Shown: positions 15,175 to 44,243 of the stretch, one piece after another | Numbering within the stretch: position 1 is the first letter of the stretch | Layout: every line of letters starts with the position of its first letter | Assembly (NCBI GenBank): GCA_963674835.2 | Contig: CAXXKC010000003.1 | Span: 1,736,842 to 1,800,841 of the forward strand | Length of the DNA stretch: 64,000 nucleotides | Direction: 5' to 3' | Source of the DNA: Thermoguttaceae bacterium | Lineage (GTDB): Bacteria; Planctomycetota; Planctomycetia; Pirellulales; Thermoguttaceae | Made by a program: the position numbers and the translations under genes | The notes under the pieces: model-generated | Database searches by the model: none | The model's input: the letters and a program-made list of their open reading frames with translations, nothing else | Told to the model about the DNA's origin: nothing

Positions 15175-16311
15175 TCATGCGCCCGCGGTTTCGTCGGCTG
15201 GGAGGGAGATCGTGAACGTGGTCCCGGCATCCAGGCGGCTTTCGACGTTGACGGTGCCGTGGTAGAGTTGCACGAGCTTCTTGACGAGCGAAAGGCCCAG
15301 TCCGCTGCCGAGGATGTGGTTGGTCCGCTCGTTCTTGATGCGGACGAACTCCTTGAAGATCTGCACCTGCTCTTCGGGCGACATTCCGATCCCGGTATCG
15401 GCGACGGCCACGACGACCTGTGAATTGTCGAATTTCAGGGCCACATCGACGCTGCCGCCGTCGCGGTTGTACTTGACCGCGTTGGAGATCAAGTTGTTCA
15501 GCAACATGGCGATTTCGTCGGCATCGGCCGTCATGGAGACGGGCCCGACGGAATTGATGCGAAGGGCGATGTTTCGGGCCTCGGCCTCGGGCTGGACCGT
15601 TTCCACAGCCGTGTTGGCGACGGCGAGGAGATCGACCTGGGCGAAGTTGCGGCCCTTGTGACCGGATTCGATTTGCGTGAGGTCGAGCAGATCGCGGATC
15701 AGTTTGTACATGCCGTCGACGCGAGCGAGGCTGCGGTCGATCATTTCGTCGTAGGACGCCAGGTCATCGCCCCGCTGTCGCTTCTTCATGAGCTGAAGAT
15801 ATCCGGCGATGGCGTTCAAGGGGGACTTCAGCTCGTGCCCCAGCACGCGGACGAACTCGAAGCGTACGCGTTGTTTTTCCTCGGCCAGTTTGCGTGCGCG
15901 CCGGGCGATGATGAGGCGGGCGGCTGTCTTACGGATCGTGCTCTTCAGCTCGTCAGGCGTGAACGGTTTGGCGAGGAAGTCGTAGGCACCCTGCTTAGTC
16001 GCGGCGACGGCGGTTTCGATCGAGGCGTAGGCCGTGATCATGATGGTGAGCATGTCGGTCTTCGTGCCAGAAAGCTCGTGAAGCACGTCCATCCCGCTGA
16101 TCCCGGGCATCTTGTGGTCGAGGAGCAAGATGTCGGGTGCCTGGCGATGGATCTTCTCGAGGGCTTCCTCGCCGGACTCGGCGTGATCGATGGAGAATCG
16201 CACGTCTTCATCGACGTCGGGGACGTGCACGACAAAGTCGCGCAAGGTGCGGAGCACGCCCATCCGCATACCCATCTCGTCGTCGGTCACCAGCAGGTTG
16301 AGTGTCTCCAT
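15175..16311 (-). CDS. Hybrid receiver-histidine kinase (REC-HisKA-HATPase)
   Basis: Trimmed to METLNLLVTDDE; this ATG 16311 lies 1 nt after the upstream gene's stop. REC motifs DILLLDHKMPGISG and FLAKPF. H-box LGHELKSPLNAIAGY. ATPase blocks NLISNAVKYN, DTGIGM and GSGLGLSL. Confidence 0.85.
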   Translation of the reverse strand: METLNLLVTDDEMGMRMGVLRTLRDFVVHVPDVDEDVRFSIDHAESGEEALEKIHRQAPDILLLDHKMPGISGMDVLHELSGTKTDMLTIMITAYASIETAVAATKQGAYDFLAKPFTPDELKSTIRKTAARLIIARRARKLAEEKQRVRFEFVRVLGHELKSPLNAIAGYLQLMKKRQRGDDLASYDEMIDRSLARVDGMYKLIRDLLDLTQIESGHKGRNFAQVDLLAVANTAVETVQPEAEARNIALRINSVGPVSMTADADEIAMLLNNLISNAVKYNRDGGSVDVALKFDNSQVVVAVADTGIGMSPEEQVQIFKEFVRIKNERTNHILGSGLGLSLVKKLVQLYHGTVNVESRLDAGTTFTISLPADETAGA

Positions 16312-16312
16312 G

Positions 16313-16717
16313 CTACTGCTTCCTTGCGGCCAGCAGGCGTTCGATCTCGCCACGAAGCTGCTCGAAACGAATGGGCTTGGGGAGCAGAGCGTCGGCCTTG
16401 ATCCAGCCGCGATCTGCTTCGGTGGCGATGTCGAAGTCGAGACCCGTTTCGCTATTGACGGAACTGACGACGATCACGGGGATGGAGGGGTCGTGCTTGC
16501 GGATATGATGGCAGAGGACGAAGCCAGCATCGGGGTTTTCCATCATGACGTCGAGGACGGCCACGTCGGGACGGCGCTCGGCAAGAAGCTCTTCGGCGTG
16601 ACGCTGCCCTTGGGCGACAAGGACGTCGAAGCCGGCGTCTTCGAGTTGCATCCGTTGTTGGAAGAGAAAATCTTCGTCGTCGTCGACCAGCAGTATCAGG
16701 GGTCTATCGGGAGTCAT
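16313..16717 (-). CDS. Single-domain response regulator (CheY-like receiver)
   Basis: MTPDRPLILLVDDDEDF..DVAVLDVMMENPDAGF..LPKPI. Start ATG 16717 is preceded by AGGAGA. There is no output domain. Confidence 0.85.
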   Translation of the reverse strand: MTPDRPLILLVDDDEDFLFQQRMQLEDAGFDVLVAQGQRHAEELLAERRPDVAVLDVMMENPDAGFVLCHHIRKHDPSIPVIVVSSVNSETGLDFDIATEADRGWIKADALLPKPIRFEQLRGEIERLLAARKQ

Positions 16718-16765
16718 TGGATTTCTCCTATTGGTTCCTATCAAGGTGAGCAGTCGGCCGTGTCC

Positions 16766-18823
16766 TCATTCTCCCATTCGCGGCAGCACCACGGTGAACG
16801 TCGAGCCGGTTGGTCCGAGGGCCGGATCGGCCTGCGATTCCACGCGGATATCGCCGGAGTGCATTTTGACGATGCCGTAGCTGACGGCGAGCCCCAGTCC
16901 CGTGCCTTTGCCGATCTGCTTGGTCGTGAAGAAGGGGTCGAAGATCTTCTTGATGTTCTCCGGCGGGATGCCGACGCCCGTATCGCTGACCGACACGCGC
17001 ACGCGCGAGTCGTCGCCATCGGTGCGAATGGTCAGCTCGCCACCGTTTTCCATGGCCGCGACGGCGTTGCTCACCAGGTTGGTTAGGACCTGGACGATCT
17101 GGTCTCGATCGACTTCGGCGATGGGATCGTCGGTGGCGTGTTCGACGCGGAGGGTGATGGATTCGGGCACAGTGAGCGCCCGCATGGTGCGCTGGACGAC
17201 CTGGCGAATATCGACGGGCGTGCGGCAGACCTTGTTCTGGCGGGCGAAGTGCAACAGGCCGGCGACGATCTTCTTGCAGCGATCGGCCTGTTCGGCGATC
17301 ATCGAGAGGTCATCGCGGAGCTTGGAATCGTTGTCGCATTCCTCCAGGAGGAGATGGGCGTACATCAGGACGACACCCAGCGGGTTGTTCACTTCGTGGG
17401 CGATGCCCGCGGCGAGTTGGCCCATGCCGGCGAGTTTTTCCGACTGGAGGAGTGCTTCCTGGGCGGCGGCGAGTTGTTTGTGGGATAGCTTGAGGTCGGT
17501 GAGCGCGACTCGGAGCTGGTCGATGGTGTTGGGCAGGCACATTTCGCTCTCGGCCAACTTCTTGTGGATGGCCACGGCGTGTTCGACGCAGGTATCGTAG
17601 CCGCAGGCGCCGCAGTTGAGTTCGTCGGCGAGCGAGAACTTGCCCATCTGATGCATGATGGCTGTTAGTTCGCTGCGGTTCGGCGCGGCGATGCGTTGAT
17701 CGTCGGCATGATAGGTGCGGCACAAATCGAGATCGGCAAGGCGGTCCATGGAATCACGCCACACGTCCTTGTCGAGGTCCTCCATGCGATGGCAGACGTA
17801 GGTGCGGACGTGGCGGCGTCGGTTGAACAACGGTAAATCGCCTTCGATGCCGGGCCCCATGATGCAACCATCGCAGCAGAGGGCTTCGAGGAGCCGGCAA
17901 CTGAGGTCGCCTTCGGCAAACTCCTTGACCGCCTCGAGCATGTGGCGCCGGCCCTGCGAGGCGATGATTTCGCCGGTGAGGAGGTCTTCGTGGATGTCGG
18001 CCGCCTGAAGGATTCCGCGGCTTACGGGGAACAGGCCCCCGATGCCGCCATGGGGCGGATCGAAGTCGCCGGCCTGGACCGATTCGGGGGTGATGCCCGC
18101 GTCGGTGAACATTCGGCGGAGTTCGGGGAACATGAGCACAGCGTCGACCTGACCGGCCATTTCCGCGCTCTGAGCCTCGACCTTCTTGGCGATGCAGGGA
18201 CCGATGAAGACGACTTTCAGGTCATCGCCATAGATGCGTCGAATGGCGCGAGTCATGGCGACCATCGGCGAGACAATCGGCGCGAGACGTTCGACCATGT
18301 CGGGATAGTACCGCTCGATGTAGCAAACGACCGCGGGGCAGGTGGTGGAGATGTAACGGCGCTGCTGGTCGCGGGTCAGCAGGTTGCGGTACTCACGGGC
18401 CACGAGATCGGCTCCGAAAGCGACCTCGACGACGAGCTGGAAACCTAGCGCGCGAATCATGCCGACCAATTGCGTGAAGGCCATTTCGGTGAATTCGGCG
18501 GGAAAGCTGGGCGCCACGCACGCGGCCACGCGGTTGCCGGATTGGAGCAGCGCTTGGACGTCATCAATACTGCTGCGAAGGACTTTGGCGTGCTGTGAAC
18601 ATACGCGGGTGCAGTTGCCACAAGCGATGCAGCGCTCGCCGACGACCTGGGCCTGGCCCTCGTTAATGCGGATCGCCTTGACGGGGCATTCGCGCACGCA
18701 CGTGTAGCACATGCGGCAGCGTTCTTTGACGGTGGTGATGAAGGCCGAACTCACGCGGATGCCTTTCTTTTCGTACCGTAGTGACCTGCGCCTCGGCTCG
18801 TTGACCTTTGCAGAGTCCCACAA
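16766..18823 (-). CDS. HydS-type (putative sensory) [FeFe]-hydrogenase-like domain fused to a histidine kinase
   Basis: Ferredoxin motifs CRMCYTCVRECP and CIACGNCTRVC. H-cluster-domain blocks STTCPAVV (L1-like, first Cys position is Thr), GPCIAKKVE (L2) and CCDGCIMGPG (L3-like). An exact Cx2Cx4Cx16C (CGACGYDTCVEHAVAIHKKLAESEMC). H-box IAHEVNNPL. ATPase blocks NLVSNAV, DTGVGI and GTGLGL. The start is uncertain: TTG 18823 or GTG 18754. Confidence 0.8.
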   Translation of the reverse strand: MWDSAKVNEPRRRSLRYEKKGIRVSSAFITTVKERCRMCYTCVRECPVKAIRINEGQAQVVGERCIACGNCTRVCSQHAKVLRSSIDDVQALLQSGNRVAACVAPSFPAEFTEMAFTQLVGMIRALGFQLVVEVAFGADLVAREYRNLLTRDQQRRYISTTCPAVVCYIERYYPDMVERLAPIVSPMVAMTRAIRRIYGDDLKVVFIGPCIAKKVEAQSAEMAGQVDAVLMFPELRRMFTDAGITPESVQAGDFDPPHGGIGGLFPVSRGILQAADIHEDLLTGEIIASQGRRHMLEAVKEFAEGDLSCRLLEALCCDGCIMGPGIEGDLPLFNRRRHVRTYVCHRMEDLDKDVWRDSMDRLADLDLCRTYHADDQRIAAPNRSELTAIMHQMGKFSLADELNCGACGYDTCVEHAVAIHKKLAESEMCLPNTIDQLRVALTDLKLSHKQLAAAQEALLQSEKLAGMGQLAAGIAHEVNNPLGVVLMYAHLLLEECDNDSKLRDDLSMIAEQADRCKKIVAGLLHFARQNKVCRTPVDIRQVVQRTMRALTVPESITLRVEHATDDPIAEVDRDQIVQVLTNLVSNAVAAMENGGELTIRTDGDDSRVRVSVSDTGVGIPPENIKKIFDPFFTTKQIGKGTGLGLAVSYGIVKMHSGDIRVESQADPALGPTGSTFTVVLPRMGE

Positions 18824-18924
18824 GGGGACACTCTATTGTACTATCTTGTGCCGATTGGCATTACTGTCTTTCGGCGACCGGCTACCTCCCGCTTCGGCGT
18901 AGGTGATCGGCGTTGCGTTCTCGG

Positions 18925-20646
18925 TCAGGTAACCACCCCGCGTTCGGTATAGTGGGTGTGGAGGAGATGGTGGCTCGTTTCCCCCAGTGGTTTGCCGAGG
19001 AATTCGGCATACAGTCGTCGGATCGATTCGTTGTGATGCGAGGTGCGAACCGGCTCGTTGGCGTCGATGGTGTAGAGGCTTTGCATTCGTGCCCGAACGG
19101 CGTCGAGATTGGCACCGATGGGCTGTCCACCGCCGTTGATGCACCCGCCGGGACAGGTCATGACTTCGATGAAATGGAGGTCGTCTCGGCCGGCACGTAC
19201 CTGATCGAGCAGGCGGGCAGCGTTGCCGAGACCGCTGACGACGGCGACGCCGAGCGTGAGATCGCCGATCGGCACGTGGGCCTCTTTGACGCCGTCGAGG
19301 CCGCGGACCGCCTGGACTTCGAGATCGCCCAACTCGCTACCGGTCACGAGGTAATAGGCCGTGCGGATGGCGGCCTCCATGACGCCGCCGCTGGCGCCGA
19401 AGAGTTTGCCGGCGGTGGTACGCTGGCCGAAGGGCGTGTCGGCCGTATCGGGCGGGAGATCGCGGAGATTGAGCCCAGCCATGCGAATGAGCGAGGCCAG
19501 TTCGCGCGTGGTGAGGACGGCGTCGACGTCGGCCACGCCGCCGCGTCCCATTTCCGGGCGCCCGGCTTCGAATTTCTTCGCGGTGCAGGGCATGATGCTG
19601 ACGCTGTAGATACGGGCGGGATCCAATCCCTCGCGTTGGGCAAAGTAGGTCTTGATGATGGCCCCCATCATCTGCTGGGGGCTCTTGCACGTAGAGAGGT
19701 TGCCCATGAAGTCGGGATACTGCGTTTCAACGAACTTGATCCAGCCGGGCGAGCAGCTGGTGAGCATGGGCAGCCGGCCGCCGCTGGTCAGCCGATGGAC
19801 CAGTTCGGAGCCCTCCTCCATGATGGTCAGATCGGCGGTGAAGCCGGTATCGAAGACGCGGTCGAAACCGAGTCGCCGCAGCGCGGCGGTCATGACGCCG
19901 ATTACGTCGGTACCCGGCGCTATGCCGAACTCCTCGCCGAGTGTGACAGAGACGGCGGGGGCGTGCTGTGCGACGACGATCTTGTTCGGATCGTTCAAGG
20001 CATCGAGCACCTCTTTGATCTGACTCTGTTCGGACAAGGCACCGGTGGGGCAGACGGCGATGCACTGTCCGCAGTTGATGCAACTGGAAACGTTGAGGCC
20101 TTCGTCGAAGGCGGTGCCAATTTTAGTTCTGGAGCCGCGGCCGATGAAGTCGATGGCCGCCACCCGCTGGACTTCCTCGCATACGCGGACGCACTTGCCG
20201 CAGAGGATGCACTTGGCGGGATCACGCACGATGGAGGGGCTGGAGGCGTCGATATGGTGGCGAGTGCGGTCACCGGCGAATCGTCGCTGGCGGACGCCCA
20301 GCTCTTCGGCCAGATCCTGCAGGCGGCAGTTGCCGTTGCGGTTGCAGTAGAGGCAATCGTCGGGGTGATTGGCCAGCAGCAGTTCGACGATCGTTTTTCG
20401 CGACTGCACGGCCCGCGGCGAGTGGGTGCGGACCTTCATGCCTTCGGCAACGGGAAAGGCACAGCTCGGCACGAGGCCGCGCTGGCCCTCGATCTCGACG
20501 ACACAGATGCGGCAGGCGCCGGTGGGGCTGAGCCCGTCGACGTGGCACAACGTGGGGACGCGGATTCCGGCCCTTCGCAGCGCGGTAAGGAGCATCTCAC
20601 CCTTTTCGGCGGCGATCGTTTGCCCATTGACTTCGATGTTGATCAT
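18925..20646 (-). CDS. hydA: [FeFe]-hydrogenase catalytic subunit HydA (multi-cluster, NuoG-like N-terminus)
   Basis: N-terminal 2Fe-2S and His-ligated cluster motifs (CRICVVEI, HPDDCLYCNRNGNC). Two ferredoxin motifs (CILCGKCVRVC, CINCGQCIAVCP). H-cluster blocks TSCSPGW (L1 variant), MPCTAKKFE (L2) and EVMTCPGGCINGGGQP (L3). Confidence 0.9.
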   Translation of the reverse strand: MINIEVNGQTIAAEKGEMLLTALRRAGIRVPTLCHVDGLSPTGACRICVVEIEGQRGLVPSCAFPVAEGMKVRTHSPRAVQSRKTIVELLLANHPDDCLYCNRNGNCRLQDLAEELGVRQRRFAGDRTRHHIDASSPSIVRDPAKCILCGKCVRVCEEVQRVAAIDFIGRGSRTKIGTAFDEGLNVSSCINCGQCIAVCPTGALSEQSQIKEVLDALNDPNKIVVAQHAPAVSVTLGEEFGIAPGTDVIGVMTAALRRLGFDRVFDTGFTADLTIMEEGSELVHRLTSGGRLPMLTSCSPGWIKFVETQYPDFMGNLSTCKSPQQMMGAIIKTYFAQREGLDPARIYSVSIMPCTAKKFEAGRPEMGRGGVADVDAVLTTRELASLIRMAGLNLRDLPPDTADTPFGQRTTAGKLFGASGGVMEAAIRTAYYLVTGSELGDLEVQAVRGLDGVKEAHVPIGDLTLGVAVVSGLGNAARLLDQVRAGRDDLHFIEVMTCPGGCINGGGQPIGANLDAVRARMQSLYTIDANEPVRTSHHNESIRRLYAEFLGKPLGETSHHLLHTHYTERGVVT

Positions 20647-20747
20647 GAATGGCTCTCGCTCTGTCGATTATCTTGCTCTTCTGGAAAGGAAGATGCAGGG
20701 TTGGGAAGCATGGTCGCTGGAGCGTCCTCGCTTCGGGCCGGGCCGAT

Positions 20748-22691
20748 CTAGTGTTTGACAACGGCGTCGAAGCGGCAGGCATCGATGCACGAGCCGCAAC
20801 CAATACATTTCTCTACGACGATGTGGTGAGGCGACTTGGCTGCGCCGACGATGGCCTCGGCCGGGCACTTCTTGACGCAGAGCGTGCAGCCGCGACATTT
20901 CTCCGGGTCGATCGAGTAGGTGACCAGTTCGGTGCAGACGGCCGCCGGGCAGGTGCGCTCGTAGATGTGGGATTCGTACTCGTCGCGGAACCACCGCAAC
21001 GTGCTGAGGACGGGATTGGGCGCGGTCTGGCCGAGCCCGCAGAGACTGGTGTCGCGAATGGTCTCGGCCAGGCTTTGCAGATGGAGGACGCTCTTGAATC
21101 GCTCGAGGGCGTCGATGCCTCGTTCCTTCTTCCGGCCCCGCGTAATGCGCTGGAGGATTTCCAGCATTCGTCGAGTGCCTTCGCGACAGGGGATGCACTT
21201 TCCGCAGCTTTCGCGTTGAATGAAGTCCATGAAGAACTTGGCCACGTCGACCATGCAGGTGTCTTCGTCCATGACGACGAGCCCGCCCGAGCCCATGATG
21301 GCGCCGACGGTCTTCAAGGATTCGTAGTCGACGTCGATATCGAGATGCTGGGCGGGGATGCAGCCGCCAGACGGGCCGCCGATTTGCACGGCCTTGTAGG
21401 TCTTGCCATTGGGGATGCCGCCGCCGATGTCGAAGACGATCTTGCGGATGGGCGTGCCCATGGCCACTTCGACGAGACCGGTGTGGGAGACCTTGCCCGA
21501 GAGGGCGAAGACCTTGGTGCCCTTGCTGGTCTTGGTTCCGAGGGCGCTGAAGCCGTCGGCCCCGATGGACATGACAGTGGGCAAGTTGGCCAGGGTTTCG
21601 ACGTTGTTGATGATTGTCGGCTTGCCGAAGAGTCCACTGACGGCGGGAAAGGGCGGGCGGGGGCGCGGCATGCCGCGACGACCTTCAATGCTGTGGATCA
21701 GGGCGGTTTCCTCGCCGCACACGAACGCGCCCGCGCCCATTTTGATGATGACGTGCAGACTGAAGTCGGTACCGAGAATGCTGTCGCCGAGAAGGTGGTT
21801 GGCCTCGGCCTGAGCAATGGCGGCCTTCAGTCGCTTGATGGCCAGCGGGTACTCGGCACGGATGTAGACGTAGGCCTTCGTGGCACCGATACCGTAGGCG
21901 GCAATGGCCATGCCTTCGACCAGCCGATGCGGATCGCTCTCGATCACGGCGCGATCCATGAAGGCGCCGGGATCGCCTTCGTCGGCGTTGCAGATGAGGT
22001 ATTTCTGATCGCCGGGCGACTGGCGGGCGAACTTCCATTTCCTACCGGTGGGAAAGCCGCCGCCACCCCGGCCGCGAAGGCCGCTTCGTTCGACAATGTC
22101 GCAGACGGCATCGGGCGTCGTTCCGTGGAGCGTGGCGACCAGGGCCTTGTAACCGCCGCGAGCAATGTACTCCTCGATTTGCGAGGGATCGATGAGACCG
22201 CAGTTGGCCAGCACCCAACGGGTTTGCGGAGCGAAGAAGGGATGTTCGTCCAAGAAGGGCACATCGGGCCAGGCAGGGACCGTATCGCTGCGATGCTGGC
22301 CGAGAACCAGGTCGTCGGGGGCCGCACTGGAGAGCGCTTCGTCGAGCAGGCGAGCAACCTTATCGGCAGTGATCTGCTTGTAGCACACGCGGGCGTGGCC
22401 GGGGAGTTGCACTTCGACGATCGGCTCGAGCGAACAGATGCCGATGCAGCCGACCATTACGACGTCGGCCTTGATTTCGTGGGTATCGAGGTACTGGTGA
22501 ATGGCGGCGAGGGTGTCGCGGGCGCCGGCGCCGAGTCCGCAGGTGCCGGCGCCGACGAAGATAGCGGGGCGAGGGACGTCGTCGCGGCGCAAATCGGCGA
22601 GCCGGCGGTGGCGTTGCTGGCGGGTGACCTCGTCGGCGGCCTCGCCGTTGACGGTCCAGGAGAGTAGCTCAGGCAGCTTCATCGCTGTCAT
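20748..22691 (-). CDS. hydB: NuoF-like flavoprotein subunit HydB of bifurcating-type hydrogenase
   Basis: GRGGGGFPTGRKWKF (FMN/NADH site) and ESCGKCIPCREG (N3-type cluster). C-terminal CRGCTLCVKKCP and CIGCGSCIDAC. Thioredoxin-like N-terminal domain. Confidence 0.9.
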   Translation of the reverse strand: MTAMKLPELLSWTVNGEAADEVTRQQRHRRLADLRRDDVPRPAIFVGAGTCGLGAGARDTLAAIHQYLDTHEIKADVVMVGCIGICSLEPIVEVQLPGHARVCYKQITADKVARLLDEALSSAAPDDLVLGQHRSDTVPAWPDVPFLDEHPFFAPQTRWVLANCGLIDPSQIEEYIARGGYKALVATLHGTTPDAVCDIVERSGLRGRGGGGFPTGRKWKFARQSPGDQKYLICNADEGDPGAFMDRAVIESDPHRLVEGMAIAAYGIGATKAYVYIRAEYPLAIKRLKAAIAQAEANHLLGDSILGTDFSLHVIIKMGAGAFVCGEETALIHSIEGRRGMPRPRPPFPAVSGLFGKPTIINNVETLANLPTVMSIGADGFSALGTKTSKGTKVFALSGKVSHTGLVEVAMGTPIRKIVFDIGGGIPNGKTYKAVQIGGPSGGCIPAQHLDIDVDYESLKTVGAIMGSGGLVVMDEDTCMVDVAKFFMDFIQRESCGKCIPCREGTRRMLEILQRITRGRKKERGIDALERFKSVLHLQSLAETIRDTSLCGLGQTAPNPVLSTLRWFRDEYESHIYERTCPAAVCTELVTYSIDPEKCRGCTLCVKKCPAEAIVGAAKSPHHIVVEKCIGCGSCIDACRFDAVVKH

Positions 22692-23160
22692 GACGCGAGT
22701 CCTTCTTGCGGTAGGAGTCGATGATTTTGGCCACGGATTTCGTCGTCACGCCGGCGTGGAAGTTGCCGTTGATGGAAATGACCGGCGCCAATCCGCAGGC
22801 GCCGATGCAGGCCACGACCTCCAGGCTGAACTGGCCGTCGCGGGTGGTTTGGCCCGGCTCGATCTTCAATTCCCGCTTGATCGCCTCCAGGATGGCAGCC
22901 GAGCCTTTGACGTGGCAGGCGGTGCCGCGGCAGACCTGGATGTGGTTGCGGCCCTGGGGCTGGAAGCGGAACTGGTTGTAGAAGGTGGCGACGCCGTAGA
23001 TTTTGCTGGCGGGAAGATTCAGGCGTTCTCCGATCCGCACGACGGCGTCTCGGGACAAGTAGCCGAACTCCTGCTGTACGTCCTGCAAGATGGGGATCAG
23101 GGCATCACGCGAAGCGTTGGGATATCGGTCAAGCAGTGTACCTAGTTCGTTTGTTGCCAC
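22669..23160 (-). CDS. hydC: NuoE-like 2Fe-2S subunit HydC
   Basis: ORF 22669..23604, trimmed to GTG 23160, which is preceded by GAGGAG. The upstream extension is Pro/Arg-rich noise. Motifs: VCRGTACHVKG...ACIGACGLAP. Overlaps the hydB start by 23 nt. Confidence 0.85.
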   Translation of the reverse strand: MATNELGTLLDRYPNASRDALIPILQDVQQEFGYLSRDAVVRIGERLNLPASKIYGVATFYNQFRFQPQGRNHIQVCRGTACHVKGSAAILEAIKRELKIEPGQTTRDGQFSLEVVACIGACGLAPVISINGNFHAGVTTKSVAKIIDSYRKKDSRHDSDEAA

Positions 23161-23214
23161 GAATCGTCTCCTCGGTAGACTTGTTGTGCTGAAATGTGGC
23201 TGGACAGGCACAGG

Positions 23215-23229
23215 GCAAACGACGTGCCG
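23215..23229 (-). promoter_or_regulatory. Sigma-54 (-24/-12) promoter for hydCBA
   Basis: The minus strand reads C-GGCACG-TCGT-TTGC-C, matching TGGCACG-N4-TTGC at every position except the first T. The -12 GC lies about 55 nt upstream of the hydC GTG. Confidence 0.65.
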
Positions 23230-23418
23230 TTTGCAGAAGTCAGTTTCGGGCCCAGAAAGTCGCGGCCGTTGCCGACAGGTTGCGAGGAAAAGGAAAGGGT
23301 GACGGGTGGGCAGCTCCTCCGCGTTTCGGCGATGGAGAACGCAGCGGGCAGGCGGAACGGACGGCGTTTTCCCGTCGATCCGGGCCCCGGCTCGGCTTGC
23401 AGGCCGGCGGTGATTGTG

Positions 23419-23444
23419 TGTATGATTTTGGTATACAGTGTATG
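23419..23444 (-). promoter_or_regulatory. Putative enhancer (UAS) site, copy 1
   Basis: The minus strand reads CATACA-c-TGTATA-ccaaaat-CATACA. This is the same 26-nt architecture as 25195..25220. It lies about 190 nt upstream of the hydC sigma-54 promoter and just upstream of the DHp/ntrC-like operon. Confidence 0.5.
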
Positions 23445-23464
23445 GAACGCGAAGGGTTCTGGAG

Positions 23465-23740
23465 ATGCCTACAACTGACGAGAATTCACCGCTGGGTTCG
23501 GAATCGCAGCGGTGCAACGCAGGTAGCGAGCGGCTGCTGGAGATCGGGCGATTCGCCGGCGACGTGGCCCACAAGATCAACAACCACCTGACCACAATTC
23601 TCACGTTCTCTCATCTGATGCGAGAGAAGTCGAACCTGGACGCGCAGGATCGCGAGGATCTGGATCTGATCATCCGGGAGGCGACGAACGCGGCGGCCCT
23701 TGCCCGCAATCTGCAAGACCGGGGTGCCGTGAATGAGTAG
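23465..23740 (+). CDS. Stand-alone histidine-kinase DHp (H-box) domain protein, no sensor or ATPase domain
   Basis: SERLLEIGRFAGDVAHKINNHLTTILTFSHLMREK..REDLDLIIREA aligns along both helices with the DHp of the HydS-kinase ([46 protein letters not shown]). About 91 aa from ATG 23465 (AAGGG 8 nt upstream); GTG 23438 is the alternative start. Its stop overlaps the next gene's ATG (ATGAGTAG). Confidence 0.6.
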   Translation: MPTTDENSPLGSESQRCNAGSERLLEIGRFAGDVAHKINNHLTTILTFSHLMREKSNLDAQDREDLDLIIREATNAAALARNLQDRGAVNE

Positions 23741-25160
23741 AGATGCGGCCAAACGGGAGATCGCGGAAGCGGCTCTGCGGATTCTCGTGATCGACGACGA
23801 TCCGGGAATTGGGCTGAGCTGCCAGAGGACCCTGGAGTCGGAAGGGCACGAGGTTCGGCATTGCCTAGTGCCGGAGGTCGGTCTGCAGGCCGCGTTGACG
23901 GGCGATTTTGACATTATTCTGCTGGACTTGCAGATGCCCGGGCTGAACGGGCTGGAGATTCTGCGCGAGCTGAAGTCGGCGGCTGTGCCTTCGGAAGTGA
24001 TCATGATCACGGGCCATGCGACCGTTGAATCGGCGGTCGAAGCGATGAAGCAAGGTGCGCAGGACTTTGTGAGCAAGCCGTTCTCGCCGGATCAGTTGAA
24101 GATGGCCGTCCGCCGGGCCGCGGAACACTCGCGGCTGATCAGCGAGAATGTGGCGCTGCGGCAGGAGCTGGAGATTCACCAGGGTTTTGAGGGGATCATC
24201 GGCGAAAGCCGGCCGATGGAGCGGGTTTTCGCCCTGGCGCGGCGCGTGGCGCCGACTGAGGGAACGGTGCTGCTGATCGGCGAAAGCGGCACGGGAAAAG
24301 AGGTGTTCGTGCGGGCGATTCACCGGCTGAGCCGGCGCAACGACCACCCGCTTCTGGCGTGCGACTGCAGCGCACTGGCGCCGACGCTGCTGGAGAGCGA
24401 GCTGTTCGGCCATATGAAAGGCTCGTTCAGCGGAGCCATCGTGACGAAGCAGGGGCTGTTCGAGGCGGCGCACGGCGGCACGCTTTTTCTGGATGAAATT
24501 GGCAATTTGAGCATGGAAATCCAGGGGAAACTGCTGCGGGTGCTCGAAACGAAGCGGGTAAAAAAGGTGGGCGACACGGCGGAGCGCGAGGTGGATATCC
24601 GCCTGATCTCGGCCACGAACCGCGACTTGATCGAGATGGTTCGCGAGGGGGATTTTCGAGAGGACCTGTACTATCGACTGAACGTCGTTCCCGTCTATTT
24701 GCCGCCGCTTCGGGAGCGGTCGGGCGATATCCCCCTTCTGGCGATATCCTTCCTCGACCGGTTCTGTAAGAAGAACCACGCGGCCGTGAAGGGTTTTTCG
24801 CCCGATGCGATGAGCTTGATGGAAGGGTACGCGTGGCCGGGCAACGTCCGCGAACTGCGGAACATCGTGGAGCGGCTGGCCATTCTGTGCGATCACGAGC
24901 GGATCGAGCCGCGCCATCTTCCGGCCGAGATTCGCCAAGCCCAGGTGGGCATCACGCCGGGGACGCCGCTGCCGCGCACGTGGGAGGAGTTCAAGCGGTT
25001 GAAGCAACAGATCCGCGAGTCGACCGTACAGCAATTGGAGCGGCGGTTTCTGGTCGCCTCGTTGGAGCGTTGCGAGGGCAACGTGAGCCGCACCGCCGAA
25101 GAGATCGGCATCCAGCGGACCAATCTGCATGCCCTAATGCGGAAACACGGCCTGACCTAG
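23733..25160 (+). CDS. NtrC-family sigma-54-dependent response regulator (REC-AAA+-Fis HTH)
   Basis: REC (ILVIDDDPG..IILLDLQMPGLNG..FVSKPF). AAA+ Walker A GESGTGKE. ESELFGHMKGSFSGA is a GAFTGA-loop variant. GNVRELRN is present. C-terminal HTH SRTAEEIGIQRTNLHALMRKHGL. Confidence 0.9.
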   Translation: MSRDAAKREIAEAALRILVIDDDPGIGLSCQRTLESEGHEVRHCLVPEVGLQAALTGDFDIILLDLQMPGLNGLEILRELKSAAVPSEVIMITGHATVESAVEAMKQGAQDFVSKPFSPDQLKMAVRRAAEHSRLISENVALRQELEIHQGFEGIIGESRPMERVFALARRVAPTEGTVLLIGESGTGKEVFVRAIHRLSRRNDHPLLACDCSALAPTLLESELFGHMKGSFSGAIVTKQGLFEAAHGGTLFLDEIGNLSMEIQGKLLRVLETKRVKKVGDTAEREVDIRLISATNRDLIEMVREGDFREDLYYRLNVVPVYLPPLRERSGDIPLLAISFLDRFCKKNHAAVKGFSPDAMSLMEGYAWPGNVRELRNIVERLAILCDHERIEPRHLPAEIRQAQVGITPGTPLPRTWEEFKRLKQQIRESTVQQLERRFLVASLERCEGNVSRTAEEIGIQRTNLHALMRKHGLT

Positions 25161-25194: not shown

Positions 25195-25220
25195 CATACA
25201 GTGTATGTTCGCTGCATACA
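25195..25220 (+). promoter_or_regulatory. Putative enhancer (UAS) site, copy 2
   Basis: CATACA-g-TGTATG-ttcgctg-CATACA, with a perfect 13-bp palindrome CATACAgTGTATG. It lies 119 nt upstream of the GG of the 25338 sigma-54 promoter. Confidence 0.5.
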
Positions 25221-25337: not shown

Positions 25338-25352
25338 TGGCACGCGTGTTGC
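25338..25352 (+). promoter_or_regulatory. Sigma-54 (-24/-12) promoter for the REC-GcvH-like/hdr/flx operon
   Basis: TGGCACG-CGTG-TTGC is a full match to TGGCACG-N4-TTGC. It lies 84 nt upstream of ATG 25436. Confidence 0.75.
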
Positions 25353-25435: not shown

Positions 25436-27004
25436 ATGCCAAACGAACCAGCACTGTTGGTCGTGGATGACGAAGATGCAATCTGCGAGGGCTGCCGACG
25501 CATCTTCTCCCGCCAGGGCTTCGACGTGCAGAAATGCAGCGACGCGAACCAGGGCTTGAGTCTGGCAGCCCGTGGCGATTACGCCGCGATCTTGTTGGAT
25601 GTGAAGATGCCGGAGATGGATGGCCTCCATTTCCTCGAAGCGCTGCGCAAGGACCAGCCGACGGTGCCGGTGATCTTGATGACCGGTTACCCGAGCATCC
25701 CGAACGCGGCCTCGGCCATTCGATTGGGCGCATCGGACTATGTGACGAAGCCATTTACGCCGGACGAGATCACGCAGGCCGTTCACCGCCTGTTGCACAC
25801 GAGCCAGAACCCGGCGGCGACAGCGACGATCAGCGAGCCGCCCGCGCCGGATGCTCCGCTGCATTTCTTCCGCGACGCCTGGTATCAGACGAACCGCGAA
25901 GGCATCGCGAGAGTGGGCGCGGTCGTGGTACGGCGGGGCGCGGCGAAGATTCAGTCGCTGCGTTTGCCGAAGATCGGCGAAGTCGTGTATCAGGGGCTGC
26001 CGCTGGCGGTGGTAACGATCGCCGGTCAGCCGCCGCGTACGATCTCTGCACCGCTTTCGGGCGTTGTCGTGGCCGTGAACGACGCGTTGGCCAGCGACGC
26101 GGCGCCGGTGCTCGATGAGCCGTGTGGAAAGGGCTGGCTCGCCTGCATCTGTCCGACACGACTCGAGGAGGAATCGACGCGATGCCCGTTGCGGCGCGTC
26201 CTCCTGTTGAGCCAAGACGACGAGGCAGCCCGGCAGCAGACGGAACGTCTGTGTGCGCTGGGGTGCGAGGTGCGCCGGCTCAGCGATCCGAAGGAATTGA
26301 CCGAAGTTCAACGCGGCTTCGACTCGAACCTGCTGCTGGTCGACGCCAAGACTCTGGGAACGGAAGGGCCGGGCATGGTCGGCGCGCTGAACGCGGCCGA
26401 TCCCGCGTTGAAGATCGTCGTACTGGCGTCGGCCGACTCCGTATTGGAGCCCGCCTATCGCACGCGGCGGATCTTCTACTATGCCGTCGAGCCGTTTGCC
26501 GACAACGAGATCGCGGACATCATCGCCGGCGCTTGCCAGGCGCCGCCGAGTACGCAGCCGGGTACGCGCCGAGAGCAGGCGCAGACGCTGGGCTGCATCT
26601 TCATCACCAACCGGAATCGGACACGCGTGCGGCTGATCGCGGCACCGGGGCTGCTGCGACGCGAGGACGGCTTGGGCCTGCTGCTGCGGCAGAGGCTGAT
26701 GGAGCGACGTTTTCCGCTGGAGAGCTCACCGAGCGAAACGCCGATCACGCCCATGCACTTGCTCCGCGAAGCGTCTCACTGCGACCGGGTGATCGTGCTG
26801 TTGGCACAGGATCACGGTCGGCTGCCGGGGAGCCTGTCGCGCGACACGAAGGCGGAGTACATCGCGATGGTGGGTGCGGGCGCCGACAAGGTGACGACAT
26901 TCCTGCTGCAGCCGAGCGACGTGCCGGACGAGCCGATGGCGTTGGATCCACAGATTCTCGAGGCGCTGGCGGATCAGTTGTCGCACGAGATGGCATCCTG
27001 TTAG
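25436..27004 (+). CDS. Response-regulator receiver fused to a GcvH-like domain (no lipoyl lysine), a pseudo-receiver and an unknown C-terminal region
   Basis: ORF 25337..27004, trimmed to ATG 25436 (GAGGGA upstream). REC: LLVVDDEDA..AILLDVKMPEMDG..VILMTGY..YVTKPF. GcvH-like: SAPLSGVVVAVNDALASDAAPVLDEPCGKGW, compare E. coli GcvH [30 protein letters not shown]. The ESVK lysine position reads TIAGQ here. The second REC-like block (LLLVDAK..KIVVLASAD..YYAVEPF) lacks the conserved Lys. Confidence 0.7.
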   Translation: MPNEPALLVVDDEDAICEGCRRIFSRQGFDVQKCSDANQGLSLAARGDYAAILLDVKMPEMDGLHFLEALRKDQPTVPVILMTGYPSIPNAASAIRLGASDYVTKPFTPDEITQAVHRLLHTSQNPAATATISEPPAPDAPLHFFRDAWYQTNREGIARVGAVVVRRGAAKIQSLRLPKIGEVVYQGLPLAVVTIAGQPPRTISAPLSGVVVAVNDALASDAAPVLDEPCGKGWLACICPTRLEEESTRCPLRRVLLLSQDDEAARQQTERLCALGCEVRRLSDPKELTEVQRGFDSNLLLVDAKTLGTEGPGMVGALNAADPALKIVVLASADSVLEPAYRTRRIFYYAVEPFADNEIADIIAGACQAPPSTQPGTRREQAQTLGCIFITNRNRTRVRLIAAPGLLRREDGLGLLLRQRLMERRFPLESSPSETPITPMHLLREASHCDRVIVLLAQDHGRLPGSLSRDTKAEYIAMVGAGADKVTTFLLQPSDVPDEPMALDPQILEALADQLSHEMASC

Positions 27005-27023: not shown

Positions 27024-27575
27024 GTGTCCACTACCACCGCTAGCATGCCCAAGGGCTTCGAACGCCTGAAGGTGACCGACTGTTACCAATGCGGCAAGTG
27101 TTCGGCCGGCTGTCCGATGTCGGAACACATGGACTTGCTGCCGAACCAGTTGGTTCGCCTGGTTCAGCTTGGCCGCCTGGAGCGAGCGATGATGTGTGAG
27201 GCGATCTGGAAATGCGTGTCGTGCATGACCTGCACGACGCGGTGCCCGAAGTCGGTCGATTGCGCCGGTGTGATGGACGCCCTGCGACAGGCGGCGGTTC
27301 AGCAGGGGAAGGTTCCGGAGGAACGGCGGCGAACCGTCTGCTTCCAACAGGCCTTTCTGGACAACATCCGCCGCAACGGCCGGCTTTGCGAGCTGGAGCT
27401 GATCGGTGTGTTCAAGACGAGGGCGTTCTTCAGGGACCACAGCGTTTCGCTGTTACTGAAGGACGCGATGTTGGCACCGCAGTTGATCCTGCGCCGGAAG
27501 TTCCACATCCGTGGTGAGCGAGCGAAAGACCGCGGAGTCGTGCAACGGATCTTTGAGAGGTGCGAGCGACGATGA
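27024..27575 (+). CDS. hdrC: Heterodisulfide reductase subunit C
   Basis: CYQCGKCSAGCP and CVSCMTCTTRCP motifs, about 183 aa. Start is GTG 27024, with ATG 27045 as the alternative. Confidence 0.85.
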   Translation: MSTTTASMPKGFERLKVTDCYQCGKCSAGCPMSEHMDLLPNQLVRLVQLGRLERAMMCEAIWKCVSCMTCTTRCPKSVDCAGVMDALRQAAVQQGKVPEERRRTVCFQQAFLDNIRRNGRLCELELIGVFKTRAFFRDHSVSLLLKDAMLAPQLILRRKFHIRGERAKDRGVVQRIFERCERR

Positions 27576-27648
27576 AACGGCGACCGCCGGTCGCGTTGTG
27601 CGCGGCGCGAGTGCCGGCCGTGGCATTGCAACGAGGAGACCTTCCACC

Positions 27649-28491
27649 GTGGATTTCGGCTACTACCCTGGTTGCGCGTTGCATGGATCGTCGAACGACT
27701 ATGGACAGTCGGTACGTGCCTGTCTGGCAGCACTGGGCGTCGGGCTGCACGAGCTGGACGACTGGATCTGCTGCGGGGCGACGGCGGCCCACTCGCTGAA
27801 CCATACCTTGGCCGTGGCATTGCCGGCGAGAAACCTGGCCATCGCCGAGCGTGACGGGCTGACGGACCTGCTGGCGCCGTGCCCGATGTGTTCGATGGAG
27901 CTGCTGAAGGCGCAGGGCGTGCTGGCGGCTTCGGAGGATGCCCGGCGGCAGATGTCGGAGATCGTCGAACTGCCAGTTCGCGGCAGCACGCGGGTGCTCA
28001 ACCTGATTCAGGTGTTGCAGCAGGTGGGCGTGGAGGCGATCCAGGAGAAGGCGACCCGCCGGCTCGAAGAGTTCCGCGCGGCATGCTACTACGGATGCCT
28101 TCTGACGCGTCCGCCGGAAACGCTGCGGTTCGACGACTGCGAGCAGCCCGATTCGATGGAGACCATTCTGCGGGCCCTGGGGGCAGAGCCAGTGGAATGG
28201 AACTACAAGACAGAGTGCTGCGGGGCCGGCATGACGATCGCCGATGAGGAGGTCGTGCTGGAGCTGTCGCACAAGATCCTGAGCAACGCACGTCAGCACG
28301 ACGCCAATTGCATGGTGGTGGCGTGCCCGATGTGTCACGCGAACCTCGACATGAAGCAGGCCGACATCGAGCGACGCTACGGATGCCGCCACGAGATGCC
28401 GGTGTATTATCTGTCGGACCTGGTTGGGCTAGCGGTGGGATTGGACGAGCGCTCGCTAGGAATCCATCGGCATTTTGTCGTGAAACGGTGA
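27649..28491 (+). CDS. hdrB: Heterodisulfide reductase subunit B (two CCG domains)
   Basis: ORF 27511..28491, trimmed to GTG 27649 (AGGAGA 9 nt upstream), giving MDFGYYPGCALHG. CCG motifs WICCGATAAH and TECCGAGMT. Confidence 0.85.
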   Translation: MDFGYYPGCALHGSSNDYGQSVRACLAALGVGLHELDDWICCGATAAHSLNHTLAVALPARNLAIAERDGLTDLLAPCPMCSMELLKAQGVLAASEDARRQMSEIVELPVRGSTRVLNLIQVLQQVGVEAIQEKATRRLEEFRAACYYGCLLTRPPETLRFDDCEQPDSMETILRALGAEPVEWNYKTECCGAGMTIADEEVVLELSHKILSNARQHDANCMVVACPMCHANLDMKQADIERRYGCRHEMPVYYLSDLVGLAVGLDERSLGIHRHFVVKR

Positions 28492-28498
28492 TCAGAGC

Positions 28499-30499: not shown

Positions 30500-30584
30500 A
30501 CGGTGGCGACGGAGAGCCTGGTCGAGGCAGGCCCCTGATGGGTCGTAGCTCGGGAAAAGGACGAGGTGACGAGGAGAGACCGCG

Positions 30585-31016: not shown

Positions 31017-31042
31017 CGTTAGAAACGTCAGGTGCGTGAAGC

Positions 31043-43949: not shown

Positions 43950-44243
43950 TTGTCGCCCACTTTGCGGCTGTGTGTGGAAGAACCGACCATGATTCAATTT
44001 AGCGCGGTGGTGGCGGTGAATCAAGTGTGCTGCCGACTGTGTCGTGCAGCCTACCCTGGCCGAGCGGGGCCGTTGTGGAAAGCCGCGGGAATACGTCTGG
44101 TTGCTCGGGGTGATGGAAGCTTGCGAGCGGCACTTGTCGTATCGATAATATGTCGTACGTTGCGACGACTTGCTACAAGAGTACCGACTGCTGATCCATC
44201 CGTGATCGGCAGTCGAGACGTCTTTCTCATGCAGGAGTATCGG

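Follow-up and report, generated by a model that had tools for sequence, protein, structure and literature searches.

Genes and Features of the Locus

The analyzed window is a 64-kb stretch of planctomycete DNA in which the neighborhood under study covers positions 15175-25160, with flanking genes followed up to 32907. The first-pass annotation had named five signaling parts: a receiver-kinase hybrid (REC-HK), a single-domain response regulator (SDRR), a HydS-type kinase (HydS-HK), a DHp-only protein and an NtrC-type activator. All five are present, as judged by Pfam and by gene calls on a second, near-identical contig of the locus. The features are:

15175-16311, minus strand: REC-HK, 378 aa, with REC, HisKA and HATPase_c domains and H-box HELKSPL (Pfam, gene call)
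16313-16717, minus strand: SDRR, 134 aa (Pfam Response_reg, 62 bits)
16766-18823, minus strand: HydS-HK, with Fer4, Fe_hyd_lg_C (170 bits), FeS, HisKA and HATPase_c domains (Pfam)
18925-20646, minus strand: hydA (Pfam)
20748-22691, minus strand: hydB (Pfam)
22669-23160, minus strand: hydC, GTG start (Pfam)
23215-23229, minus strand: sigma-54 -24/-12 promoter CGGCACGTCGTTTGC, 55 nt upstream of the hydC GTG start
23419-23443, minus strand: predicted upstream activator site, ATACACTGTAT-N9-ATACA in minus-strand reading
23465-23740, plus strand: DHp-only ORF, 91 aa, helical hairpin, H-box AHKINNHLT (HisKA match, gene call)
23733-25160, plus strand: NtrC/AtoC-type sigma-54 activator, with REC, Sigma54_activat, AAA_lid_14 and HTH_8 domains and a GSFSGA loop in AAA+ (Pfam)
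25196-25220, plus strand: predicted second copy of the upstream activator site, ATACAGTGTAT-N9-ATACA
25338-25352, plus strand: perfect sigma-54 promoter TGGCACGCGTGTTGC, 84 nt upstream of the REC-GcvH start
25436-27004, plus strand: REC-GcvH, the fourth receiver, with REC, a GcvH-like domain and an uncharacterised C-terminal region
27024-32907, plus strand: HdrC-like, HdrB-like (CCG), HdrA, MvhD/FlxD, FlxC-like and FlxB-like genes (Hdr-Flx)

The hdr-flx operon begins with REC-GcvH, whose receiver had previously been overlooked. The acidic pair, the phospho-Asp, the Thr/Ser and the Lys are kept in all four receivers of the neighborhood, as read from the translations, and the H-box His is present in HydS-HK, REC-HK and the DHp-only protein. 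The hydABC genes encode a HydABC-type NADH-dependent, bifurcating-type [FeFe] hydrogenase (NCBIfam NF040763, 847 bits, cut-off 765). Among solved structures, those of bifurcating HydA1 (8a6t and 7q4v) match it best.

The HydS-HK Cassette

The sensor domain of HydS-HK, the true start of which likely lies near 18757, is a sensory-type [FeFe]-hydrogenase of HydDB group C1, a group listed by HydDB as “histidine kinase-linked (putative)” (PMC5037454). The H-cluster ligands C300, C355, C499, and C503 are retained, the sensory-type substitutions of C299 by Thr, M353 by Gly and M497 by Leu are found, and a Cx2Cx4Cx16C motif is present. The HisKA-HATPase_c transmitter is AtoS/ZraS-like, with an H-box (AHEVNNPL) that is invariant among 16 homologues. 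The activator is most like AtoC, in keeping with the earlier pairing of this H-box type with NtrC-family regulators. REC-HK carries an N-terminal receiver with a canonical Thr/Phe switch, a combination that marks a regulatory receiver controlling the kinase and not a phosphoryl shuttle (PMC9981736). On these features REC-HK appears to be a regulated kinase and not the relay step that had been suggested for the hybrid.

A survey of 69 genome loci with more than 10 phylum-level labels places REC-HK directly downstream of HydS-HK in 67 loci and SDRR next to HydS-HK in 57, the complete three-gene cassette being found in 55; hydA lies upstream in 56 of 67 loci. The SDRR stop codon is one base from the REC-HK start, and the SDRR protein has a long conserved beta4-alpha4 insert. 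Across the survey, SDRR tracks the presence of hydCBA, and where the hyd structural genes and HydS-HK separate, it stays with the former. HydS-HK, SDRR and REC-HK are an old signaling cassette of many phyla, in which it occurs without NtrC or sigma-54 promoters. Since it is conserved where neither an NtrC gene nor a sigma-54 promoter at hydC exists, its generic output would be something other than NtrC. The five parts are accordingly not one ancestral relay, because NtrC and the DHp-only protein are add-ons of one clade.

The full gene set recurs with identical synteny in six contexts on other contigs, besides the near-identical copy of the locus. This recurrence and the frequency of the three-gene cassette put the gene arrangement far beyond chance, and the co-conservation outside the source genome on which the relay proposal depended is borne out.

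The NtrC-Type Activator and Its Predicted Sites

A sigma-54 site orthologous to the hydC promoter is found in 8 of 51 loci, against a background of 1.25%; seven of these have an adjacent divergent NtrC gene, and no NtrC gene was detected in the eighth (L004). On one side, the predicted upstream site precedes the hydC promoter by ~200 nt and the DHp-only start by ~20 nt; on the other, it precedes the hdr-flx promoter by 142 nt. These two copies are the only perfect matches to the 25-bp site in the window, where three matches with at most one mismatch compare with 0.22 expected. The site is conserved in 16 locus records, corresponding to 14 distinct loci (L001 is the second contig of the studied locus and L083 duplicates L082), and wherever the sequence allows, a sigma-54 promoter follows 123-305 nt downstream. 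NtrC, sigma-54 promoters and the ATACAGTGTAT-N9-ATACA site flanking hydCBA and hdr-flx are found together in only one planctomycete clade. At both hydCBA and hdr-flx, a -24/-12 promoter has the conserved 25-bp site ahead of it, which makes the NtrC-type protein the very likely sigma-54 activator of the two operons, as the first-pass annotation had proposed.

Pairs of a Cache kinase and NtrC adjoin HydS-HK in three phylum-level groups, namely Planctomycetota, Hydrogenedentota (L066) and Myxococcota (L079). Where the Cache kinase has been lost, no kinases other than those of the cassette lie within 10 kb. Their DHp specificity positions differ from those of NtrC’s ancestral kinase (T, G/T, T, F), being G, V, M, Y in HydS-HK and likewise deviating in REC-HK, which speaks against NtrC being an efficient direct substrate of either kinase. 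In the NtrC receiver, alpha1 is unchanged.

The DHp-Only Protein

The DHp-only ORF matches HisKA with 33.8 bits (gathering cut-off 26.9), contains no HATPase, and overlaps the ntrC start by 8 nt at its stop. It was annotated by the gene caller on the second contig and belongs to a family of ~27 metagenomic clusters (57-76% identity), across which its length, start and stop positions are conserved. The alignment contains 30 invariant columns, derived residues included; H36, K37, and N40 are invariant, with Lys at H+1 and His at H+5 fixed throughout. With dN/dS at 0.06-0.13 for a near-saturated dS of 0.6-1.5, the ORF is a genuine protein-coding gene under purifying selection, which upholds its listing in the first-pass annotation. 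An AlphaFold2 model yields a hairpin (mean pLDDT 82). In structure comparison it is closest to the DHp domains of ERS1, GacS, CpxA, and ZraS, and the RetS-GacS DHp co-complex 7n0e is also among the top matches.

The protein shares 54-57% identity with the DHp of the kinase encoded beside orthologous NtrC genes, as opposed to 33% with the DHp of HydS-HK. A reduction series leads from Cache-HAMP-HK through HAMP-HK and a 196-aa form to the DHp-only protein and finally to nothing, the 196-aa intermediate already having HK..KH and a degenerate CA domain. By this sequence evidence, the DHp-only protein is a remnant of NtrC’s own Cache-HAMP kinase that has lost the sensor and ATPase domains, and does not go back to a Spo0B homologue drawn into the cassette, as the earlier comparison with sporulation implied. 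The alpha1 and alpha2 docking residues are unchanged; the His, the NtrC-docking residues and the phosphatase Asn are kept, while Lys replaces the kinase-essential Glu. In HisKA kinases, kinase activity alone depends on the acidic residue at H+1, and phosphatase activity alone on the Asn/Thr at H+4 (PMC3510030). In all contexts examined, the gene is translationally linked to ntrC and never to a kinase gene. The close relative L002 has lost the DHp core, yet NtrC, the upstream site, the two promoters and the cassette are all in place; the core is thus dispensable for activation. Most probably, the DHp-only protein is a kinase-dead modulator specific to NtrC. The invariant His and the Lys at H+1, needless in a pure phosphatase, could point to phosphotransfer instead.

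Proposed Mechanism and Alternatives

The favored overall reading, to which a probability of roughly 45% is assigned, is a sigma-54 redox/H2 regulon in which the cassette feeds NtrC and the DHp-only protein modulates it. The conserved cis-elements suggest that the activator binds the 25-bp site in both flanking intergenic regions and would switch on two operons, one comprising hydCBA, HydS-HK, SDRR and REC-HK, the other REC-GcvH-hdrCBA-flx. The H-cluster domain of HydS-HK would sense H2 or redox state and control the AtoS-like transmitter, which may in turn phosphorylate the N-terminal regulatory receiver of REC-HK in what would be a kinase cascade and not a phosphoryl shuttle. SDRR may serve as a second acceptor, be it a sink, a competitor or an output tied to the hydrogenase operon. 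As NtrC has lost its own Cache-HAMP kinase in the source lineage, the cassette kinases are its most likely phosphodonors there. The DHp-only protein, as a dimeric helical hairpin, presumably still docks the NtrC receiver; it has the signature of a DHp that is kinase-dead but competent as a phosphatase (Lys at H+1, Asn at H+4) and would most likely dephosphorylate or sequester NtrC, thereby setting a threshold and insulating the H2 response. Against this regulon stands the observation that NtrC has its own input in relatives with a full Cache kinase, so that the cassette could be merely a co-transcribed NtrC target. It also counts against this reading that neither SDRR nor REC-HK shows lineage-specific changes alongside the loss of NtrC’s kinase.

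The best surviving alternative, still an unlikely one, is a four-step His-Asp-His-Asp relay from HydS-HK through SDRR and H36 of the DHp-only protein to NtrC. The DHp-only protein would then be a minimal phosphotransferase like Spo0B, ChpT or PhyT, and NtrC would have been rewired from its lost Cache kinase to an H2 sensor. The invariant His with its fixed Lys and His neighbors suits such a role, as do the absence of an adjacent kinase for NtrC in DHp-only genomes and the 196-aa intermediate, whose HK..KH and degenerate CA-like domain recall the Spo0B/ChpT architecture. SDRR has, like the Rec-only protein Sma0114, no aromatic switch residue on beta5 (PMC9981736), and the Pak-SdrG-PhyT-PhyR system offers a precedent, in which PhyT, a histidine-kinase-like protein, was initially regarded as a phosphatase (PMC5898713). 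However, L002 retains the rest of the system without the DHp core, a FATGUY-like motif was not found in the SDRR sequence, and the DHp docking residues remain of the NtrC-kinase type with no adaptation to a second receiver seen. Moreover, the SDRR sequence is unchanged across genomes with the full kinase, the DHp-only protein or neither.

Next and likewise improbable are two independent circuits in one neighborhood, the cassette being only a transcriptional target of NtrC. NtrC would be fed by an unlinked kinase or acetyl phosphate, with the DHp-only protein as its phosphatase, and the cassette output would lie elsewhere, or SDRR would act post-translationally on HydABC. The cassette’s conservation across many phyla without NtrC or sigma-54 promoters, the Cache kinase of NtrC in relatives, the tendency of SDRR to stay with the hyd structural genes and the divergent specificity residues of the cassette kinases all agree with this separation. 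It is harder to reconcile with an AtoS/ZraS-like transmitter beside an AtoC-like activator, with Cache-HK and NtrC pairs next to HydS-HK in three phylum-level groups, and with cassette kinases as the sole kinases nearby after the Cache kinase loss.

A very improbable role is that of a poison subunit, in which the DHp-only protein would form heterodimers or hetero-oligomers with the DHp of HydS-HK or of another kinase and block its autophosphorylation in the manner of RetS on GacS. The structural match to 7n0e and the 33% identity to the HydS-HK DHp invite this comparison, but the residues retained are the receiver-docking set of NtrC’s kinase and the translational link is always to ntrC. Finally, a functionless decaying relic of a deleted kinase gene, as the origin from a larger ancestral gene and the absence from some relatives might suggest, is effectively refuted by the selection analysis, along with the conserved ORF boundaries, the invariant derived residues and the gene call.

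Comparison With Known Systems

HydS-HK resembles group C [FeFe] “sensory” hydrogenases of the Thermotoga maritima HydS type in the four retained cluster Cys ligands, the loss of the proton-relay Cys299, Gly in place of M353, the C-terminal Cx2Cx4Cx16C and the association with a HydABC (A3-type) hydrogenase (PMC8163306, PMC5037454, PMC11406978). Unlike in that type, a HisKA-HATPase transmitter, not a PAS domain, is joined directly to the H-domain, and SDRR and REC-HK almost invariably follow. No description of these two partners was found in the literature examined.

In Ralstonia, the HoxBC-HoxJ-HoxA system also couples a hydrogenase-like H2 sensor (PMC5665086) to a histidine kinase, and HoxA is an NtrC-family sigma-54 activator over hydrogenase genes. 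The [NiFe] regulatory hydrogenase has an unrelated metal site, however, the HoxBC sensor and the HoxJ kinase are separate proteins, and the system has no SDRR, REC-HK or DHp-only component.

Pak-SdrG-PhyT-PhyR of Sphingomonas (and MrrA/LovK-PhyK of Caulobacter) has its components in the matching order of kinase, single-domain receiver, kinase-inactive HK-derived protein and output regulator. Besides sequestering or dephosphorylating PhyR, PhyT passes phosphoryl groups on to it (PMC5898713). As a membrane protein with a full-size kinase-like core, PhyT differs from the DHp-only protein, a soluble hairpin of 90 residues in which nothing of the CA domain remains. The output here is a sigma-54 activator, and phosphotransfer is a putative step.

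Spo0B (Bacillus) and ChpT (Caulobacter) descend from histidine-kinase DHp domains and form dimeric four-helix bundles with a phosphorylatable His and no ATP-dependent autophosphorylation (PMC3433190). The DHp-only protein shares this descent and the missing autophosphorylation machinery but, unlike both, has no C-terminal CA-like domain, derives from the terminal regulator’s own kinase and is dispensable in one relative. Spo0B and ChpT both keep the acidic residue after the His, in contrast to the Lys of the DHp-only family.

The isolated EnvZ domain A (DHp), as Park in 1998 and Zhu in 2000 are said to have reported, dimerises, dephosphorylates its regulator and is phosphorylated in trans. The DHp-only protein is similarly an isolated DHp and, measured against the HisKA E/DxxN/T phosphatase motif, keeps the Asn at H+4 with the acid at H+1 gone. 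Unlike the engineered fragments and point mutants of those studies, it is encoded by a naturally fixed, free-standing gene.

Gene Order and Parts of the Locus

The neighbourhood is a composite of an old cassette and a younger module. The cassette comprises a HydS-like [FeFe] group C1 sensor fused to a histidine kinase (HydS-HK), a receiver-kinase hybrid (REC-HK) and, in part of its range, a single-domain receiver (SDRR); the younger part is an NtrC module whose kinase has been reduced to a DHp hairpin (DHp-only). Gene order was established from Pfam and gene calls on a near-identical second contig of the locus. The GC content of the window is 62%, the names of its closest homologues point to a planctomycete, probably one of the Thermoguttaceae, and codon-position GC singles out one coding ORF per stretch.

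Genes of the locus in window positions, from Pfam and gene calls
15175-16311, minus strand: REC-HK (REC-HisKA-HATPase_c)
16313-16717, minus strand: SDRR, 134 aa
16766-18823, minus strand: HydS-HK (Fe_hyd_lg_C, FeS, HisKA and HATPase_c)
18925-20646, minus strand: hydA
20748-22691, minus strand: hydB
22669-23160, minus strand: hydC
23465-23740, plus strand: DHp-only, 91 aa, with HisKA as its sole domain; divergent from hydCBA
23733-25160, plus strand: NtrC-type activator; its start overlaps the DHp-only stop by 8 nt
25436-27004, plus strand: REC-GcvH-like gene (Pfam GCV_H, 39 bits)
3' of REC-GcvH, plus strand: hdrCBA and flx genes

Every part named in the first-pass annotation is present, with His and Asp sites intact according to translations and Pfam, and all four phosphorelay component types carry intact H-boxes and receiver active-site residues. 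A fourth receiver, the REC-GcvH-like protein at 25436-27004, had been overlooked. No signalling protein of the locus was named by NCBIfam above its cut-offs. The textbook HydA motif is TSCCPxW, instead of which the catalytic HydA carries TSCSPGW (19700-19760). Since the solved bifurcating HydA1 of A. woodii (7q4v) has the identical motif, TSCSPGW is probably normal for this HydA subgroup.

The N-terminal half of HydS-HK was aligned to solved HydA structures (7p5h, 8a6t). All H-cluster cysteine ligands (C300, C355, C499 and C503) are retained, the proton-relay Cys299 is replaced by Thr, Met353 by Gly and Met497 by Leu, and a Cx2Cx4Cx16C motif lies C-terminal to the H-domain. Such H-domain features are known from putative sensory group C/D enzymes (PMC8163306). 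By sequence, HydS-HK falls in HydDB [FeFe] group C1, with an H-domain that keeps its ligands and has lost the proton-relay Cys, and it is a putative H2 sensor acting via its H-cluster. The sensor is fused to HisKA-HATPase_c and linked to a group A3 HydABC operon; a HATPase domain and frequent A3 hydrogenase adjacency have been recorded in a survey of Hydrogenedentota (PMC11406978). The DHp alpha1 helix is invariant across HydS-HK homologues. The transmitter resembles AtoS/ZraS most and the activator AtoC, in keeping with the earlier remark that this H-box type is usually partnered with NtrC-family regulators. HydDB lists group C1 as having an "undetermined role," and HydS papers ask how the signal gets transduced; for the question of signal output from putative sensory group C [FeFe] hydrogenases, the locus supplies a concrete and testable parts list.

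Conservation of the Sensor Cassette

HydS-HK homologues number more than 7,800. When a profile built from 16 homologues was run against species-representative genomes, it picked up 80 loci under more than 10 phylum-level labels, whose domains were classified over all six-frame ORFs. Among the 69 loci having at least 2 kb of sequence 3' of HydS-HK, REC-HK lies directly 3' of HydS-HK in 67, SDRR is adjacent in 57 (after HydS-HK in 50, between hydA and HydS-HK in 10), and an adjacent SDRR and REC-HK occur together in 55. Immediately 5' of HydS-HK, hydA is found in 56/67 loci. These counts therefore identify HydS-HK, SDRR and REC-HK as an old cassette of wide distribution, in which the link between HydS-HK and REC-HK is tightest. 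HydS-HK with its almost obligatory REC-HK and frequent SDRR spans many anaerobic phyla.

Almost all loci without an adjacent SDRR have HydS-HK away from hydCBA. In several loci of this arrangement, SDRR remains with the hyd genes, next to a 6TM (PilS-like)-GAF-HisKA-HATPase kinase, and REC-HK is the sole partner that HydS-HK has kept.

SDRR with hydrogenase genes, apart from HydS-HK (locus records from other genomes)
L031, 1410-5548
L036, 4026-8095
L044, 1813-6055
L006, 3945-6695
L011, 13199-15453

Because SDRR stays with the hyd genes when HydS-HK is separated, it may belong functionally to the hydrogenase operon.

The co-occurrence check proposed in the first-pass annotation gave a divided answer. 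The five genes do recur outside this genome, in six contexts from other contigs that share the synteny of hydCBA, HydS-HK, SDRR, REC-HK, DHp-only, NtrC, REC-GcvH and hdr-flx. As a set, they are confined to one clade; it is the cassette alone that is present in many phyla, there without NtrC or DHp.

A pair of Cache-HAMP kinase and NtrC genes orthologous to the planctomycete pair also neighbours HydS-HK/REC-HK in two MAGs, one of Myxococcota (L079:4469-7835) and one of Hydrogenedentota (L066:83-3056); these two cases hint that the larger module moves between phyla.

A Sigma-54 Regulon of hydCBA and hdr-flx

The NtrC-type activator consists of a receiver, a sigma-54 AAA+ domain (Pfam Sigma54_activat, 224 bits) and HTH_8. 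Its predicted targets carry sigma-54 promoters and copies of a conserved 25-bp upstream site (UAS), and these features together class it as an NtrC-family sigma-54 enhancer-binding protein.

Promoter elements and upstream sites in window positions
23229-23215, minus strand: sigma-54 -24/-12 element before hydC, one mismatch
23419-23443, core 23433-23443: UAS copy 1, ATACA-S-TGTAT-N9-ATACA (ATACAGTGTAT-N9-ATACA), oriented towards the hydC promoter
25196-25220, core 25196-25206: UAS copy 2, ATACA-S-TGTAT-N9-ATACA, oriented towards the REC-GcvH promoter
25338-25352, plus strand: sigma-54 -24/-12 element before the REC-GcvH gene, perfect

Of the 51 loci whose sequence upstream of hydC could be used, 8 have a sigma-54 element there (background rate 1.25%); seven of the eight have a divergent NtrC gene, and in the eighth (L004) no NtrC gene was detected. 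The UAS was spotted by reading both intergenic regions and then confirmed by pattern search. Its perfect core occurs at just two places in 64 kb, and allowing at most one mismatch gives three matches vs. 0.22 expected. Conservation of the core extends to 16 locus records, which correspond to 14 distinct loci (L001 is the second contig of the window locus and L083 duplicates L082), and in every case with enough sequence a sigma-54 promoter follows it at a distance of 123-305 nt. The third UAS-like match, with one mismatch and an abutting sigma-54-like element that also has one mismatch (43576-43600, plus strand), lies inside an opposite-strand beta-helix/PKD gene (42297-45713) and is probably due to chance. 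An inverted-repeat search of both intergenic regions reported nothing, and neither the sigma-70 promoter scan nor the terminator scan rose above shuffled controls.

Sigma-54 control of both operons, as first proposed, is borne out by the promoter and oriented UAS copy at each, and it is well supported that hydCBA and hdr-flx form one regulon; NtrC is the candidate protein for binding the UAS. Since copy 1 sits ~20 nt from the DHp-only start, the DHp-ntrC operon may also be autoregulated. One planctomycete clade thus offers a complete cis-regulatory readout, with an NtrC-type activator, a UAS and sigma-54 promoters on bifurcating hydrogenase and Hdr-Flx operons.

The gene for REC-GcvH opens the sigma-54-driven hdrCBA-flx operon and is kept in every DHp-only context. 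Its lipoyl-lysine position appears to be replaced (VTIAGQ in place of VESVKA), and ~250 more residues, uncharacterised, extend beyond the receiver and GcvH-like domain. The protein may be a post-translational regulator of Hdr-Flx or a further phospho-acceptor.

Origin of the DHp-Only Protein

The DHp-only protein shares 54-57% identity with the DHp of the full-length kinase encoded directly 5' of orthologous NtrC genes; the HydS-HK DHp reaches only 33%. That full-length kinase is a dCache/sCache-HAMP-HisKA-HATPase_c protein of 640-720 aa; in other relatives the form is HAMP-HisKA-HATPase_c with a length of 352-393 aa, and some have none. The likeness to a kinase DHp first suggested a relic or pseudogene, a hypothesis overturned by family conservation and dN/dS. 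A protein search yielded 27 DHp-only clusters, mostly of 71-107 aa and 57-76% identity, all of which carry AHKINNHLT except one truncated canonical fragment; compared with the canonical H-box, position H+1 holds Lys instead of Glu and H+5 holds His instead of Pro. Sequence pairs compared over the core give dN/dS values of 0.06-0.13, with dS between 0.6 and 1.5.

The HisKA match scores 33.8 bits vs. a curated threshold of 26.9, and the AlphaFold2 model is a helical hairpin (helices 11-53 and 60-89, mean pLDDT 82) that Foldseek matches best to DHp domains; the E-values are weak (none better than 0.016), which is usual for a two-helix query, and only TM-scores and target identities were relied on. 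Profile match, hairpin fold and invariant H36 together mark it as a HisKA DHp domain. When 1.84 billion representatives were searched exhaustively with a profile, only five clusters of the family came up before scores fell to those of ordinary kinases. Short matches with canonical HE..NP in that search appear to be pieces of kinases, truncated or frameshifted, rather than family members. One 196-aa protein (P0153) combines an AHKVNKHL DHp, in which HK..KH is already present, with a degenerate truncated CA-like region, an architecture that resembles Spo0B/ChpT; it is a plausible evolutionary link from the short HAMP kinase to DHp-only. For two-component evolution the family constitutes a natural experiment: step by step, a kinase was trimmed until the helices that dock the receiver were left, with substitution of the residue needed for kinase activity and retention of the one needed for phosphatase activity.

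Predicted Function of the DHp-Only Protein

Kinase activity of HisKA kinases depends on the acidic residue at H+1, which their phosphatase activity does not need, and the reverse holds for the Asn/Thr at H+4 (PMC3510030). The DHp-only protein has neither an acidic H+1 nor a CA (HATPase_c) domain, the latter because ntrC begins 8 nt upstream of the DHp-only stop, and is thus no bifunctional kinase. H36 and the H+1 Lys are invariant, as is N40 (the H+4 Asn; 24/24 sequences), so that the E/DxxN/T signature at H+4 appears phosphatase-competent. Docking to NtrC should persist, since the alpha1 and alpha2 residues of the cognate kinase (LTxxLTFSHL, EDLDLII) are retained and alpha1 of the NtrC receiver is unchanged.

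A close relative, the Thermoguttaceae MAG JBDKUC010000426.1 (L002:5380-5740), lacks the DHp core and retains NtrC, the upstream sites, both promoters and the cassette. Because its NtrC begins with a stretch (MPRDSIQSEKQRPADE...) similar to the variable tail at the N-terminus of DHp-only proteins, fused in frame, this locus suggests an in-frame deletion, a natural DHp-only knockout with the rest of the regulon intact. With NtrC, sites, promoters and cassette all kept, it further suggests that DHp-only is dispensable for NtrC activation. The docking residues, the H+1 Lys/H+4 Asn pattern and this deletion together favour a negative, NtrC-specific role, in which DHp-only would act as a phosphatase or sequestering factor. 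Once worked out, its function would show how signalling specificity modules get recycled.

A role as a phosphotransferase stays live, at roughly one chance in four, because the His is invariant and because PhyT, long regarded as a phosphatase, turned out to pass on phosphoryl groups that it receives from a single-domain receiver (PMC5898713). On balance unlikely too is the boldest form of this reading, in which no natural histidine phosphotransferase would be smaller than DHp-only: with nothing left of the kinase but the four-helix bundle, it would pass phosphoryl groups to NtrC from SDRR or from another kinase's ATPase domain in trans. If true, a sigma-54 activator would have been re-plugged from an extracellular Cache sensor to an intracellular [FeFe] H2 sensor, and pathway rewiring through domain loss would have been caught at several evolutionary stages.

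Relay Models and the Phosphodonor of NtrC

The first-pass annotation had raised the possibility of a Spo0-like His-Asp-His-Asp relay from HydS-HK to the activator of hydCBA and hdr-flx. What holds of this is that the neighbourhood encodes a genuine signalling unit of several components, conserved together and connected with a sigma-54 regulon; the strict relay stays in play among several models, but another is more likely. SDRR, its candidate shuttle, is by sequence an atypical receiver: its family has a beta5 without the aromatic switch residue (LLPKP), a long conserved beta4-alpha4 insert (NSETGLDFDxxTExxRxWIKAD) and DVMME where DxxMP is usual. The missing switch residue would suit a shuttle, yet the FATGUY shuttle-receiver motif was sought in SDRR and is absent, and the REC-HK receiver is regulator-like. 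The latter, once cast as a relay checkpoint, is N-terminal, with a highly conserved alpha1 helix and a canonical Thr/Phe switch, and N-terminal receivers of kinases cluster with regulator-type rather than shuttle receivers (PMC9981736). On these grounds REC-HK is read as a phosphorylation-regulated kinase rather than a relay step. A screen of SDRR and REC-HK for changes tracking the state of NtrC's kinase found none beyond phylogeny.

With the Cache kinase lost, HydS-HK and REC-HK are the only kinases within 10 kb of NtrC, and the transmitter class of HydS-HK (AtoS/ZraS type) is right for it. The DHp specificity positions of both kinases differ from those of NtrC's ancestral kinase. The cassette is also widespread without NtrC, and a link from cassette to NtrC, though plausible, would be specific to this lineage.
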